The translations under genes and the position numbers were made by a program. The notes below the pieces were generated by a model, which saw only the letters and a list, made by a program, of their open reading frames with translations, had not been told where the DNA came from and did no database searches. A stretch of 64,000 bases of DNA from an uncultured archaeon (lineage in GTDB: Archaea; Asgardarchaeota; Lokiarchaeia; Sigyniarchaeales; SOKP01), in assembly GCA_964632315.1 (NCBI GenBank), contig CAZWEM010000007.1:16571-80570 (forward strand), written 5' to 3'. This document shows positions 46,557 to 55,100 of the stretch, in pieces. The number at the start of each line of letters is the position of its first letter. Positions within the stretch are counted from its first letter, which is position 1.

Positions 46557-47888
46557 TTAAGGAAAAATTCCTCTTAATTCAATAGCTCTTGCTAATCTTG
46601 AAACGGCTATTATATATGCAGCAGTTCTTAAAGTTGTATTTTTCTTCAAAGAGAGATCATAAACTTCCGAAAATGTGTTAACCATAATACCTTCTAATTC
46701 TTGGTTTATTCGATCAAGTTTCCAAAAGTAGCTATGAATATCTTGGATATACTCAAAATAACTTACGCAAACTCCCCCAGCATTTGCTAAAATATCAGGT
46801 ACAACAATTATCCCCCTCTCTCTTAATATTTCATCAGCTTCTGGTGTCGTTGGACCGTTTGCTCCTTCTAAAATTATTCCACAATTAATATTGTCAGCGT
46901 TATCGAGGGTTATCTGATTTTCTATTGCAGCTGGGATTAAGACATCACAATCAATATTTAGTAATTTGTCGTTAGGAATAAATTCGTAGTTTTCTTCCCT
47001 ATAGTCTTTTAAAAAGTGATTTTGATCGACCCATTCTGATAATTTTTTGATATCTAAGCCTTTATTATCATATAATCCCCCACTAATATCTGAAATCGCA
47101 ATAATCTTTGCTCCTTTTTCATATAGTATCCTAGCTATTGTTCCTCCAACGTTTCCAAAACCTTGGACTACGATGCTACTACCTTTGAGAGCTAAATTCA
47201 TTTTTTTATATAATGCATCTAATACATAATATAATCCCATTCCCGTTGCACTTTCTCTTCCCACTGATCCTCCTATTTCTATAGGTTTTCCGGTAACCAC
47301 TCCTGGAACAGAACGCCCTTTCTGCATTGAATACACATCCATAATCCATGCCATTATCCTTTTATCAGTTCCCACATCTGGAGCAGGAATATCAATATCA
47401 GGACCAATAATATTAATGATTTCAGCTGTGTATCTTCTTGTCAGTCTTTCAAGCTCTCCTAATGAAAGTTTTCTTGGATCAACACATACTCCTCCTTTAG
47501 CACCCCCTAAAGGGAGGTTTAATAAGCTGTTTTTCCAAGTCATCCATGTTGCAAGTGCCTTTACTTCATCTAAACACACGTTGGGAGAAAACCGAATGCC
47601 TCCCTTTCCTGGACCCCTGACGGTAGAATGCTGGGCTCTATATCCCTCAAATACTTCAAGTTCTCCATTATCCATAACTACAGGAATTGAAACAATCAGA
47701 GAGCGCTCTACTCTTTTTAGATATTTGGTAATATTTTTGTCTAGTCTCATCTCTTTAGCGACAATGTCGATTTGTTGTTTCGCCATCTCAAAGGGATTTC
47801 GAATTACTTTCTGAGGCCTTTTATATTCTTCTGATGGTTCGATCTCATTTGATACTACTATTGCTTTTTTATAAATAATTCTCCCCAC
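46557..47888 (-). CDS. gdhA: Glutamate dehydrogenase (Glu/Leu/Phe/Val family)
   Basis: RGPGKGGIRF, MTWK, GGAKGG, PAPDVGT, VTGKP, QGFGNVG, EGANGPTT, PDILANAGGV. Confidence 0.95.
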   Translation of the reverse strand: MGRIIYKKAIVVSNEIEPSEEYKRPQKVIRNPFEMAKQQIDIVAKEMRLDKNITKYLKRVERSLIVSIPVVMDNGELEVFEGYRAQHSTVRGPGKGGIRFSPNVCLDEVKALATWMTWKNSLLNLPLGGAKGGVCVDPRKLSLGELERLTRRYTAEIINIIGPDIDIPAPDVGTDKRIMAWIMDVYSMQKGRSVPGVVTGKPIEIGGSVGRESATGMGLYYVLDALYKKMNLALKGSSIVVQGFGNVGGTIARILYEKGAKIIAISDISGGLYDNKGLDIKKLSEWVDQNHFLKDYREENYEFIPNDKLLNIDCDVLIPAAIENQITLDNADNINCGIILEGANGPTTPEADEILRERGIIVVPDILANAGGVCVSYFEYIQDIHSYFWKLDRINQELEGIMVNTFSEVYDLSLKKNTTLRTAAYIIAVSRLARAIELRGIFP

Positions 47889-50078: not shown

Positions 50079-51386
50079 TTAATGACTCGCACACGAGACA
50101 CATGGATCAAAAGATCTTATAATTTGTTGAACATCACATTTAACTCCATTAATATCGCCAGTTTTTTGATATAATCTTCGAGCATAATTCGTTATCATTG
50201 TATTTATGAGTGGAATGTTTATTTCTGTTGCTATGAGCAATTTTACTTCCTTTACTATCTTATTCTCATCAATCTTGTAGTGATGGATCAATGTGCCACG
50301 AGGAGCCTCTAAAATTCCAACACCATCTTTTCTTTCAATTTTTTTTAAATTTGAGAGATTCCTTTTTCCCTTTAGTGCAGGATTATCTAAAATTGCTAAA
50401 GCTTGGTTTGCTTCTACAAAAATTTCAATTAATCTGAGAAAGTTCATAAACAAGGTCGATCTTTTCCAGGATTTATCGAAATTTGTGAAATATTTATCAA
50501 CATCCTCAACGTTATAACTTTCAATCAGATTATAACGTGCAAGAGGACCAACTAAAATGCTTGAATCTTTTTCTAAATTAAAATTGATCCCTCGTAGATC
50601 AGGATCTTTATCAAAATATCTTTCATAATTATTAAATTGAAAGTCTACGGGTTTAGATTGATCGGTGAGTAATCTCAATATACCATTGTATCTTCCGTAA
50701 TTGCCATGAAAATGTTGACTGAGAAATGTTGTATTTGGTAAGGTGAATTGTTCTGGAGGCTCAAAATTTGAAAATAGGTTTATAAATTTATCTAACACAT
50801 AATCTATACTTACAATAACTTTTTGGAAGTAGCGTTTTACGGTTGTAAAATCTTTTTTTATTGGAGTATAAATTACTCCTCCTGGAATTGTATTAATTAA
50901 ATGTACCGAACGACCACCAAATATCTTGTCAATTTCGTTCCCAAATTTGACTAGCTCATACATGTATGAGGTTAATTGAGGATCAAAATGGGTTAATTCA
51001 TATGGATTAGGAACATTTTTAAAATGTCCAAAAATATGTAAAAGATCTGGTAATGCTTGAAAGAAATAATGCATTGAATGAGATTTGATTAGTTCGCCTG
51101 TCAATAATAATTTTCTTAGAAGTATCATTTGTTCATCTGGTTCAACATTAAATATGTGTTCAATTGCCTTGCAACTTACGATACTTTGAGAAGCATGGCA
51201 TAGCCCACATATCCTACTTACAATTCGGGGAAGTTCTATTAATCTCTTTCCAATAAGAATTTGTTCAAATCCTCTTAAAGTATTAATTTCGAAATCTACC
51301 GTGGAAATATTATCATCTTGAAGAATTATTTTTACATTTCCATGGCCTTCTATTCTAGTACATAGATCTACGATCTTTAACATCAT
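50079..51386 (-). CDS. mvhA: [NiFe]-hydrogenase large subunit, group 3 (MvhA-like), atypical
   Basis: TRIEGHG, RGFE, RICGLCHASQ, SHSMH, EAPRGTLIHHY, DPCVSCASH followed immediately by stop. Confidence 0.88.
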   Translation of the reverse strand: MMLKIVDLCTRIEGHGNVKIILQDDNISTVDFEINTLRGFEQILIGKRLIELPRIVSRICGLCHASQSIVSCKAIEHIFNVEPDEQMILLRKLLLTGELIKSHSMHYFFQALPDLLHIFGHFKNVPNPYELTHFDPQLTSYMYELVKFGNEIDKIFGGRSVHLINTIPGGVIYTPIKKDFTTVKRYFQKVIVSIDYVLDKFINLFSNFEPPEQFTLPNTTFLSQHFHGNYGRYNGILRLLTDQSKPVDFQFNNYERYFDKDPDLRGINFNLEKDSSILVGPLARYNLIESYNVEDVDKYFTNFDKSWKRSTLFMNFLRLIEIFVEANQALAILDNPALKGKRNLSNLKKIERKDGVGILEAPRGTLIHHYKIDENKIVKEVKLLIATEINIPLINTMITNYARRLYQKTGDINGVKCDVQQIIRSFDPCVSCASH

Positions 51387-52146: not shown

Positions 52147-54697
52147 TTTCTCCCACCTCTTCCAATTCTTTGTAAAATTTTTGAATGATTTCAGAAAACT
52201 TACTTCCTTCCACAGCATTTACATGTTTCAATATGACTCGGTGGGCGAATTTTGGACCAAGAATACTCTTTAATAAGTGAACTTTCTTTCTTACGTTCTC
52301 AATACCATCAATGTATCTGCAAGAGTTTTTTCGGCATCCAATGATCAAAATTCCATCAAACCCTAATTCAAAAGATTTTATAATAAAGCTTGAATCGACC
52401 CTTCCGGTACATGGTACTTGAATTATGAAGATATTAGGATAATATGTTATCTTCTTCAATCCAGCATCATCAGCTGCAGCATAACCACAAGATCGACAAC
52501 AAAATGCGATAATTTTAGGCGAATTTTTAAATTTGGAAAATATTTCTATACTTTTTAATATTTTTTCAGAGCTGTCTATGTTCATGCTCAAAGCATTAGT
52601 AGGACAGACGCTTACACAAGTACCACATCCCTTACACTTGAATTTATCAATGTTTAATTTATCAACTTCAAAAGTTATAGCATTATAAGGACATACTTTT
52701 AAGCATAGTCCACAGAGACCACATCTTTCATAATTTATTTCAATTCCTCCAAATTCAGCTAATAAATAATCATTAGAAAGTAAAGAAATTACTTTTAACG
52801 CAACTTGGTTTGCTGATATAATAACCTCCTTATAACTTAATGGCCCAAAAATCGAGCCTGCCCCGTAGACTCCTGAAGCAAGTGTTTCTTCGCTCATAAA
52901 TCCAAAATCATTTAATGTAAAATCCATTTGTTTACGAAGAACTTTTAAATCTTTATTGGGAATTAAATTAGGATTCAGAATTATTAAATCAGAAGGATAT
53001 TCTTTATCATCAGCAACGACAACATTTTGGTTATATGTGTTTTTAATTTCTAACTTTTCAGCGTAATGAATCCTATCATCAAAAATACTAAATCTATATG
53101 AGGGAGTTTTCACCTTATTTTGAATTTGATAAAACACATTTATGTTTATTTCTGGATTCTTTTGGCGAATTTCTTCCATGTATTTTAATACTAAGACGTT
53201 AGCTAAATCTAATTGTGAGTTGCTCTCAGTTGCATTCTGAATTATGGAGATATCATTCGGTACTGCTTTATCTGAAAGACGAATGATTTTTCCTTCTGTT
53301 ATTCCATCTGAAGATAATATTCTTTCAAATTCAGCTGAAGTTATTATATCATTCATTGGATTATGGGAGAAATTATCAAATTTATCAGGAAGGTCAGTAC
53401 CAATAGCAACCACCTTAGTACCTGCTTTAATTCGTATTTCTTCTGGTTTTTGAGATAGATCAATTGCTTTGTTTGGACATGCCCGTTCGCATATTCCGCA
53501 ATTAAGACAGTTCTTTATGTCTTCTTGATCAATTATGGGAGCATATGGATAACAATGAATAAATGGTAAGTATATTATTTTTCGCTCCTCCAAATTAAAC
53601 TCATATTGATTTGGTTTTTGAACACTACATAAATCGATACATTGCTTACAACCAGTACATTTGGTTTCATCTACAAACCTTGGATTTTTTCTTAAATCAA
53701 TGGTAAAATTACCAACCTCTCCAGAGATATTCATAACTTCTGTATTAGTAAAAATTTTGATATTAGATTCTTTTACAAGTTCAGAAATGAATTCTGAAAT
53801 AAAACATATCGAACAATCTCCCATTTCATAAATTTTATGCCATCTTGCTACTTTTCCTCCAAGTGTTGCCGATTTTTCAATTAAATACACTTTTATTCCC
53901 GCCCTTGCTAGATTAAGAGCAACAGTCATCCCAGCAATACCTCCTCCAAGAACTGCGCAACTCCGTTCAACTTCTACCTTTTTAACCCTAATTGCTTTTT
54001 GAAGTATTGCTCTCTCGACTGCAGCTTCTATTAATAATTTAGCTTTTTCTAGGGTTAAAGCAGGATCTATTATTTCGTTTAAATTATTATGAACCCACGC
54101 ACATTGTTCTCTAATATTCGCAAATTCAATATAAGTATGATCAACTGTATTTTCAAAAATATGCTCAAAGAGATGTTGATGAGTCTTGGGAGAACAAGCA
54201 GCAATAACAATCTTATTTAAGTAGTTATCTTTAACCCAATTTTTAATTTGATCAAAATTTTTCTGTTGACATAAATTTTGAAAACGTTTAACTGAAACCA
54301 CGTTTCTTAAACGGGTAATGTAATTCTCAAGTGCGGAAATATTGATAACACTAGAAATTTCCTCATTACAATTACAAATTATTACGCCTACTCTACTGAT
54401 CTCACTTCCTTTGGAGTGAAAATAATCATCTATGTCCTCACCTGAGAGAATTCGTTTATTAAGATTCATAATAGTCATAATCCTTTTGCCATCTTCGGTG
54501 AGAAAATAGGATTTATTATCCTTTCCAATAAGAGAACCAAGTTTCTTAAGGTGAAAATTAAGTTGACCAGTCGTATCTAACCCAAGGCGTTCCATTAACT
54601 CTGTGTAAGGAATATAACCTTCTTTTTCCAAAAGGAGTAAAATTTTTCTTCGAAAAGGGTGGGATAAAATTGAATAAACATCCATTTCTTTTAACAT
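52136..54697 (-). CDS. Fusion protein: winged-helix DNA-binding domain + HdrA-like flavo-FeS protein + MvhD
   Basis: N-term LSHPFRRKILLLL...TGQLNFHLKKL...YFLTEDG. HdrA motifs VGVIICNC, AACSP, NIREQCAWVH, GGGIAG, DCSIC and two ferredoxin modules. MvhD motifs AFCCRSCGYAAAD, CTGRVD, GC....CRY. Confidence 0.9.
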   Translation of the reverse strand: MLKEMDVYSILSHPFRRKILLLLEKEGYIPYTELMERLGLDTTGQLNFHLKKLGSLIGKDNKSYFLTEDGKRIMTIMNLNKRILSGEDIDDYFHSKGSEISRVGVIICNCNEEISSVINISALENYITRLRNVVSVKRFQNLCQQKNFDQIKNWVKDNYLNKIVIAACSPKTHQHLFEHIFENTVDHTYIEFANIREQCAWVHNNLNEIIDPALTLEKAKLLIEAAVERAILQKAIRVKKVEVERSCAVLGGGIAGMTVALNLARAGIKVYLIEKSATLGGKVARWHKIYEMGDCSICFISEFISELVKESNIKIFTNTEVMNISGEVGNFTIDLRKNPRFVDETKCTGCKQCIDLCSVQKPNQYEFNLEERKIIYLPFIHCYPYAPIIDQEDIKNCLNCGICERACPNKAIDLSQKPEEIRIKAGTKVVAIGTDLPDKFDNFSHNPMNDIITSAEFERILSSDGITEGKIIRLSDKAVPNDISIIQNATESNSQLDLANVLVLKYMEEIRQKNPEININVFYQIQNKVKTPSYRFSIFDDRIHYAEKLEIKNTYNQNVVVADDKEYPSDLIILNPNLIPNKDLKVLRKQMDFTLNDFGFMSEETLASGVYGAGSIFGPLSYKEVIISANQVALKVISLLSNDYLLAEFGGIEINYERCGLCGLCLKVCPYNAITFEVDKLNIDKFKCKGCGTCVSVCPTNALSMNIDSSEKILKSIEIFSKFKNSPKIIAFCCRSCGYAAADDAGLKKITYYPNIFIIQVPCTGRVDSSFIIKSFELGFDGILIIGCRKNSCRYIDGIENVRKKVHLLKSILGPKFAHRVILKHVNAVEGSKFSEIIQKFYKELEEVGEIEA

Positions 54698-54741
54698 CCC
54701 TCTGACTTTTTATGATAAATAAATTGATAAATTTTTTAATA

Positions 54742-55019
54742 TGATAATTTTTTTTATCAACATGACAAATGATGTGATCAAGATATATAAATCTATGTTG
54801 TAAATCGATCATATAATGTTGCATTCCAAAAATAGCGATCCTCAATTTCAATAATATTGAGTATTTTTCTATAAAAAATCCGGTAATTAATACCAAAAAA
54901 CTATAAAAGTAGGGGTTGTTACAGCAAAATAGGTTCAAATCTTAATTGACAACACTTTTAGTTAAGCATTTTTTTTGATAAGATTTGTTGTCAAATTTAG
55001 CATTAATTTTGTTGTCAAA
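54742..55019. promoter_or_regulatory. Divergent promoter with TGATAA-N6-TTRTCA palindromes and TGTTGTCAA repeats
   Basis: TGATAA-tttttt-TTATCA 54742-59 and TGATAA-gatttg-TTGTCA 54976-93. TTGACAACA 54946-54. TTTGTTGTCAAA at 54984 and 55008. Confidence 0.5.
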
Positions 55020-55100
55020 CTCTTTAAATTTGGAATAAATGGTTTTTCAATTAGAAAACTGTATTCAACTAATTTCCAACGAAAAAAAGGTGGTAAAAAA

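Follow-up and report, generated by a model that had tools for sequence, protein, structure and literature searches.

The window analysed here, a stretch of 64,000 nucleotides from an uncultured archaeon (Asgardarchaeota; Lokiarchaeia; Sigyniarchaeales; SOKP01; assembly GCA_964632315.1, contig CAZWEM010000007.1, positions 16,571 to 80,570), carries a hydrogenase cassette built around P0001, a [NiFe]-hydrogenase large subunit. On the minus strand, the cassette runs from a fusion protein, in which a winged helix-turn-helix (wHTH) domain precedes an HdrA-like flavoprotein and an MvhD domain, through the small and large hydrogenase subunits to a conserved downstream protein (Table 1). The interval originally predicted for the large subunit, 50079-51386, stands, and its strand is corrected to minus: the plus strand of this interval is crowded with stop codons, whereas the minus strand translates as one open frame.

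Table 1. Features of the hydrogenase cassette and its surroundings, in positions of the window
Feature	Position	Strand	Remarks
[NiFe]-hydrogenase large subunit P0001, 435 residues	50079..51386	minus	single open frame; TAA stop at 50079-50081 included in the range
L1 metal motif RICGLCHASQS, residues 58-68	51183..51215	minus	Cys60, Leu62, Cys63, His64, Gln67; Gln67 codon CAA at 51186-51188
Gln110 codon CAA	51057..51059	minus	gas-channel gate residue position, by alignment with pHG1 HoxC (Phe110) and HoxG (Leu125)
L2 motif DPCVSCASH, residues 427-435	50082..50108	minus	Cys429, Cys432, His435; C-terminus without extension
Hydrogenase small subunit, 276 residues	51388..52218	minus	Pfam Oxidored_q6; 12 Cys suited to three Fe-S clusters (Cys pattern from translation)
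wHTH (DUF7347)-HdrA-like flavoprotein-MvhD fusion, 853 residues	52136..54697	minus	predicted electron acceptor; Pfam DUF7347, HTH_24, FAD, Fer4, FlpD
Conserved downstream gene, ~315-342 residues	49082..50110	minus	Asgard-only family; matches neither Pfam nor NCBIfam; closest Atlas clusters hold unnamed archaeal proteins
Divergent intergenic region	54698..55100		TGACAA-N6-TTGTCA-type inverted repeats at 54763-54780 and 54976-54993
Glutamate dehydrogenase gene	46557..47888	minus	
Mpt_N-domain protein, 568 residues	55726..57432	plus	single frame

The large subunit matched the Pfam family NiFeSe_Hases (PF00374) at 89 bits (cut-off 25.8). Its best matches in the PDB, both full-length, were the large subunit of HydABCSL (7t2r_D, E value 8e-53) and MvhA (5odc_F, 2.6e-52), and E values across the MvhA, HydABCSL, NAD-reducing and sulfhydrogenase chains ranged from 1e-36 to 1e-53. 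Every NCBIfam equivalog cut-off was far out of reach; VhuA (181 bits, cut-off 800) and ShyA (181 bits, cut-off 700) were equally distant. The Pfam match and the full-length similarity to solved group 3 enzymes bear out the proposed identity, and assignment as a group 3 type [NiFe]-hydrogenase subunit is supported at the level of the group.

Translation of the minus strand also recovered every motif reported in the original prediction: RICGLCHASQS with its Gln, DPCVSCASH followed directly by the stop and hence without an extension, the four Cys ligands, EGHG and APRG. RIEGHG occupies residues 11-16 and includes Glu13, EAPRG contains Arg363, and the two CxxC pairs for Ni and Fe binding are present, Cys60 and Cys63 in L1 (RxCGxC) and Cys429 and Cys432 in L2 (DPCxxC); the TAA stop immediately follows His435. 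As the translation shows, the large subunit keeps all of the residues (these four Cys, Glu13 and Arg363) expected to serve NiFe(CN)2CO binding and H2 splitting.

These features were traced through the 120 closest database homologues (50-100% identity, 428-441 residues). Gln occupies position 67 in all 120, and in all 120 the protein ends at the last residue of the L2 motif (His in 119, Tyr in one), so that Gln67 and the missing tail are a trait of the clade and not a private oddity. Glu13, Cys60, Cys63 and Arg363 are likewise invariant, and the C-terminal DP-C-x-x-C motif was matched throughout; such invariance of catalytic residues indicates purifying selection on the metal site and on the machinery for protons and hydride. 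Leu62 is kept in 119 of the 120, position 64 is Tyr in 64 and His in 53, and position 110 is Gln in 113 and His in seven.

HoxC/HupV-type regulatory hydrogenases have low turnover, put at about 2 U/mg for the C. necator sensor in PMC11023054, are insensitive to O2, show only the Ni-SI and Ni-C states and control transcription in response to H2. We aligned the window large subunit with the sensor HoxC and the membrane-bound enzyme HoxG, both encoded on pHG1 of C. necator H16. The L1 motif of HoxC is PRVCGICSVSQS, with Gln67, its gas-gate residues are Ile62 and Phe110, and it ends in DPCMVCTVH with no tail; HoxG has His82, the gate residues Val77 and Leu125, and a tail of 15 residues. The window large subunit has Gln67 and no tail, with Leu62 and Gln110 at the gate. 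In the solved MvhA (5odc_F) and HydABCSL (7t2r_D) chains, L1 reads RICGICxxxHH and about 25 residues lie beyond the terminal His. The premise that HoxC has Gln and lacks the extension, whereas MvhA has His and an extension, was thus confirmed on pHG1 HoxC and on the solved MvhA chains.

According to the literature, only the bacterial H2 sensors depart from the L1 His that all other [NiFe]-hydrogenases share (PMC5665086), and the bottleneck pair of the gas channel, Val/Leu in standard enzymes, is replaced by Ile/Phe in sensors (PMC11023054, where the regulatory hydrogenase, group 2b HoxBC/HupUV, is named group 2c). At position 110, 56 of 67 other group 3 representatives have Leu and eight have Met, and none of the 73 other group 3 sequences in the comparison has a polar Gln at the gas-channel gate. 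The clade has His or Tyr at position 64, where Pro or Ser stands elsewhere, and Leu at position 62 in place of Ile or Val; at the gate pair, the basal cassette members resemble HoxC (Ile/Phe) in having Leu/Phe. The changes at positions 62, 64, 67 and 110 therefore point to a pocket remodelled at several second-sphere positions together. The contacts of residues 64, 67 and 110 are those suggested by homology to the positions described in PMC11023054.

The best NCBIfam match of the small subunit is VhuG, far under its cut-off, and this subunit adjoins the large subunit in all fetched loci. In the PDB, the fusion protein matched HdrA (E value 2.6e-105) and MvhD (1e-24), and its best NCBIfam match was HdrA2 (574 of 1100 bits); its FlpD domain spans residues 729-849. 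Both ferredoxin domains of HdrA are kept. In the thioredoxin-reductase domain, the four Cys aligned to the methanogen cluster motif CVGSR...CSRVCC are absent (window positions 53175-53345, fusion residues ~450-510). The HA4 cluster forms the branch from flavin adenine dinucleotide (FAD) to HdrB (PMC13580544), and the lost Cys are putative ligands of HA4, the cluster that leads from FAD to HdrBC in methanogens.

Approximately 60 related loci, drawn from species genomes and public contigs, were scored by phmmer. The wHTH-HdrA-MvhD partner was present in 43 of 43 Gln-type loci whose upstream gene lay fully on the contig, and the conserved downstream protein followed the large subunit directly in ~20 loci. 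Co-occurrence of Gln and the missing tail with the wHTH-HdrA fusion, put forward as a check in the original prediction, accordingly held in that no Gln-type enzyme with enough flank lacked the partner; the refuting case named there, such enzymes with no wHTH protein beside them, was not encountered. The same partner was also found at 11 loci with a His-keeping large subunit. These comprise L046 (no tail), L111 (3-residue tail), L048, L090, L091 and L093 (Phe gate, tails of 7-8 residues), and L094-L097 (genus g30, of another family) together with L112, in which the terminal L2 His is replaced by Val or Leu (e.g., DPCISCSSV followed by an 8-residue tail). No kinase, of the HoxJ/HupT type or any other, occurred in the cassette at the ~55 loci scored.

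In a tree of 61 large subunits, computed with IQ-TREE and with HoxC and HoxG as the root, all cassette-linked sequences formed one clade (support 99/94) outside the 3b-like and the long-tail 3c-like rows, the latter having the L1 His and tails of 20-34 residues. Within it, the Gln67 clade had support of 100/99 with one reversal (L046), and the polar gate appeared as a single state change coincident with that clade. On these sequences, the tree shows Gln67 arising together with His/Tyr64 and Gln110 in one step. The tail has a different history: four early Gln rows retain tails of 5-11 residues (L047, with the full Gln triad, represents the 11-residue type, and the His-type L048 has 7 residues), and tail presence changed state seven times among the 61 rows. 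Since HoxC groups with HoxG in the outgroup, its Gln is convergent with that of the cassette, and the original description of the likeness as convergent was upheld at residue level as an independent event on the rooted tree.

The partner alignment adds an earlier step. The four HdrA cluster Cys are present in the basal His-type loci L094, L111 and L112 and absent from L048 onwards; a regular-expression test for these Cys was discarded after it gave false negatives on canonical HdrA, and the alignment was used instead. Reconstructed from both subunits, the order of events is shown to be acquisition of the wHTH partner, loss of the HdrBC-directed cluster, appearance of the Gln67, His/Tyr64 and Gln110 triad and, last, loss of the tail; judged by these sequences, the wHTH partner is older than both Gln67 and the tail loss. 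Parallel change in two subunits speaks for a shift in function and against drift.

The intergenic region upstream of the wHTH gene contains inverted repeats of the type TGACAA-N6-TTGTCA, and the divergent genes beyond it encode a ~205-residue protein with no significant Pfam match and the Mpt_N-domain protein. A site with at most one mismatch lay upstream of the wHTH gene in 22 of 53 loci, compared with 0.13% of shuffles, and one with at most two mismatches in 40 of 53, compared with 2.6%; the pattern had been read by eye from the same sequences on which it was scored, and the relatives are not independent. The distant His-type loci L048, L090, L091 and L093 match the repeat exactly, and it is missing (4-5 mismatches) in a subclade with FrhB-like and split HdrA-like upstream neighbours. 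Of the 11 sites with at most one mismatch in the source genome, three are intergenic; apart from the cassette site, they precede a thiolase/PurE pair and a pyridine-nucleotide-disulphide oxidoreductase. A wider regulon was considered and found no support in this genome-wide count. In the source genome, DUF7347 is found as well in short free-standing open frames of 115-260 residues.

The source assembly (4.45 Mb, 99.5% complete) holds a second hydrogenase locus of canonical selenocysteine (Sec) type, belonging to group 3c (VhuGAU-HdrCB-Hyp; contig C11, ~36.6-39.6 kb, L001 and downstream). Its small subunit is VhuG-like (409 residues); its large subunit is VhuA-like, carries RICGICPIPHH and stops short of the L2 motif, which is supplied by a VhuU-like small frame reading ...RCFDC-TGA-LSCAAH plus a 21-residue tail, the in-frame TGA presumably encoding Sec. 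HdrC-like and HdrB-like frames follow VhuU, and HypD lies ~5 kb off (C11:44571-45614). With this His-containing Vhu locus in the same genome, the cassette represents an additional hydrogenase, next to a standard energy-converting enzyme, and not the sole one. One HycI-type protease is encoded on contig C8, and neither a group 4 nor an [FeFe] hydrogenase was found in the source genome. The genome also contains twelve FlpD/MvhD domains; in five, one or two TGA codons lie in frame, which suggests several Sec-containing proteins of the MvhD/HdrA type.

Distribution was sampled in an even set of 300 species genomes. Orthologues with at least 43% identity were restricted to three families of one class, that of the window itself (~50 of 68 genomes) and two others; more divergent cassette members turned up in two further families, and none was found in the seven genomes of the sister family. 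Sequence comparison marks the cassette lineage as a separate cytosolic group 3 lineage in Asgard archaea that is mostly confined to one Lokiarchaeia-type family. The taxon names given by submitters to close homologues include Thor-, Odin-, Heimdall-, Hod- and Hermodarchaeota; despite these broad names, the narrow spread led us not to claim an Asgard-wide occurrence. HypD is present in 83 of 101 family genomes. In three bins (G049, which is 99% complete, G234 and G077), the cassette gave the only PF00374, PF00346 or PF02906 match, and HypD was not found there either. An argument against a sensor role from its being the sole hydrogenase in these bins was dropped, as they probably just lack the vhu-hyp locus through binning. 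The expectation that genomes with only tail-less enzymes lack the endopeptidase carried no weight either way, a HycI-like gene being present in four of five such bins.

Set against characterized systems, the large subunit shares with HoxBC/HupUV (group 2b; C. necator, R. capsulatus) the L1 Gln, which bears the number 67 in both, an end at the L2 His, and a non-standard gas-gate residue. The likeness is one between distant lineages, as the sensors descend from group 2; the window gate is Leu62/Gln110 instead of a bulky Ile62/Phe110, and a wHTH-bearing HdrA-MvhD flavoprotein takes the place of the HoxJ/HupT kinase. Closer in sequence are MvhAGD and VhuAGDU-HdrABC of methanogens (group 3c; PDB 5ODC, 9SW2, 8RVU), which provide the best full-length solved matches (E about 1e-52), a small subunit with Cys for three clusters and the same MvhD [2Fe-2S] link to an HdrA flavoprotein. 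Unlike them, the window enzyme has Gln67 for His, Gln110 for Leu and no tail of 20-30 residues; its MvhD is fused to HdrA, as in HdrA2, and the fusion bears a wHTH domain; its HdrA lacks the four Cys of the HdrBC-feeding cluster, and the cassette has no HdrBC. The position of the cassette clade outside the 3c-like rows and the VhuA score, far below cut-off, set it apart in the same way. Sulfhydrogenases I and II of Thermococcales (group 3b; PDB 5YXY, 9E15) are also cytosolic group 3 enzymes of similar size with short tails (4 residues), some relatives being tail-less, and ShyA scored the same as VhuA; however, they keep the L1 His and the gate Leu, and their partners are beta and gamma NAD(P)-binding subunits rather than HdrA-MvhD.

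We propose that the complex would still turn over H2, in an altered fashion. H2 would be split at the NiFe site and its electrons passed through the three predicted clusters of the small subunit to the MvhD [2Fe-2S] domain fused to the HdrA2-like flavoprotein. At the active site, the His that normally hydrogen-bonds a bridging Cys is replaced by Gln67, as in the bacterial H2 sensors, and turnover would be retained behind a restricted, polar gas gate and with a changed hydrogen bond. Obstruction of the gas channel hinders H2 evolution more than H2 oxidation (PMC11023054), and slow H2 uptake would probably be favoured over H2 release. The main job of the enzyme might then be to set the redox state of the predicted DNA-binding flavoprotein.

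A precedent for such a dual protein is PutA of enterobacteria, a flavoenzyme with an N-terminal DNA-binding domain in which the redox state of the flavin switches between repressor and enzyme roles. The analogy is functional only: PutA is an unrelated protein with a different fold (ribbon-helix-helix, proline dehydrogenase), and its substrate is proline, not H2. On present sequence evidence, the case for a regulatory role of the cassette, either as a pure sensor or as a PutA-like enzyme that also regulates genes, is evenly poised. The more specific picture of a kinase-free, single-complex H2 sensor is put forward tentatively: the large subunit would be the H2-detecting head, and its slow NiFe site would reduce the flavin and Fe-S centres of the fusion, changing its binding to the putative TGACAA-N6-TTGTCA-type operators in its own divergent promoter. 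The low-activity sensor of the original prediction is likewise plausible by analogy, although we stop short of calling it probable. Its two sensor hallmarks are real, Gln and the missing tail matching HoxC residue for residue, but neither is diagnostic of sensing. As indications of sensing the two hallmarks are weak evidence, and the partner protein and the stepwise co-evolution are the stronger ones.

Several observations weigh against a sensor and bear at the same time on its chief competitor, in which the complex is an ordinary metabolic hydrogenase, an HdrA2-type oxidoreductase between H2 and ferredoxin (or another acceptor) that serves fermentation or the redox balance of the Wood-Ljungdahl pathway. 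Gln67, His/Tyr64 and Gln110 would then be kinetic tuning specific to the clade, the missing tail a sign of protease-independent maturation, and the wHTH domain structural or at most autoregulatory. In the bacterial sensor itself, the Gln is reported to have no apparent part in H2 sensing and not to be required for it (PMC5665086). Tail-less large subunits with the L1 His recur in group 3, and one set is closest to the alpha subunit of the catalytic sulfhydrogenase I. Gln110 is unlike the bulky Phe of the sensor, and its presumed effect is extrapolated from mutants of a distant group 1 enzyme. Large subunits with His and a tail of 3-8 residues have this wHTH partner too, so that a regulatory function of the complex, should it have one, would not stem from the hallmarks. 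That the wHTH domain binds DNA is itself predicted from a domain match, and the repeat is not enriched genome-wide, with 11 sites against ~19 expected by composition. All catalytic residues are invariant in the homologues, and the complete Fe-S relay, comprising the three-cluster small subunit and both retained HdrA ferredoxin domains, would equally fit a metabolic route to ferredoxin. Such a role also agrees with the cassette being present in most sampled genomes of its family and with a literature in which the group 3 enzymes of Asgard archaea figure as bidirectional, cofactor-coupled hydrogenases whose specific function is left undefined. Against it stand the wHTH domain fused to the electron-accepting subunit and kept across a deep clade, the loss of the HdrBC-directed cluster from HdrA in a cassette without HdrBC, the canonical Vhu-Hdr enzyme already present in the same genome, the polar gate residue, which is expected to slow H2 egress, and the conserved inverted repeat in the promoter region. 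On balance we regard a purely metabolic hydrogenase as rather improbable, yet a serious contender.

The remodelled gate could alternatively guard the site. A narrowed polar gate and Gln67 might protect an enzyme with a normal metabolic role from O2, CO or sulfide, which would suit the link between the gate pair and O2 resistance in bacterial sensors (PMC11023054) and the HoxC-like gate of the basal cassette members. Blocking the channel alone, however, gives no O2 tolerance (PMC11023054), and neither the wHTH domain nor the loss of the HdrA cluster is explained, which makes inhibitor resistance quite unlikely. We consider it more doubtful still that the large subunit is no longer a hydrogenase and persists as a redox or structural scaffold without H2 turnover: the three bins in which the cassette is the only hydrogenase found and HypD was not found either would fit, but incomplete binning of the vhu-hyp locus accounts for them most easily, HypD is encoded in the source genome and in most family genomes, and the four Cys, Glu13 and Arg363 are kept in every one of the closest homologues.

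The clade provides a second, independent exception to the L1 His rule stated in PMC5665086, and the polar Gln at the gas-channel gate is new in it. Its members form a natural experiment on the roles of second-sphere residues, as they range from His enzymes with a tail through Gln enzymes with and without one to a single His revertant. Syntrophy models of the origin of eukaryotes turn on the exchange of hydrogen, and Asgard group 3 enzymes have been called bidirectional by analogy only; should the cassette enzyme be a regulator, figures for Asgard H2 production or consumption that are derived from genomes and count it would need revision. A true sensor would have no predecessor among H2 sensors either in archaea or in group 3, and the His-to-Gln sensor pocket would then have been invented twice, independently; a direct signalling route from hydrogenase to DNA would be new. 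A limited literature search returned nothing relevant on a wHTH-HdrA fusion or an Asgard H2 sensor.

Two neighbouring genes recur around the cassette. The glutamate dehydrogenase gene is found again no more than a few kb downstream in the distant relatives L014 (9402-10748) and L046 (10541-11794). The Mpt_N-domain protein is a single frame in the window and in the distant relatives L048 and L090, and consists of two consecutive frames (~240 and at least ~230 residues) in many genomes of the same genus or family, such as L079 (7070-7801 and 7853-8503).

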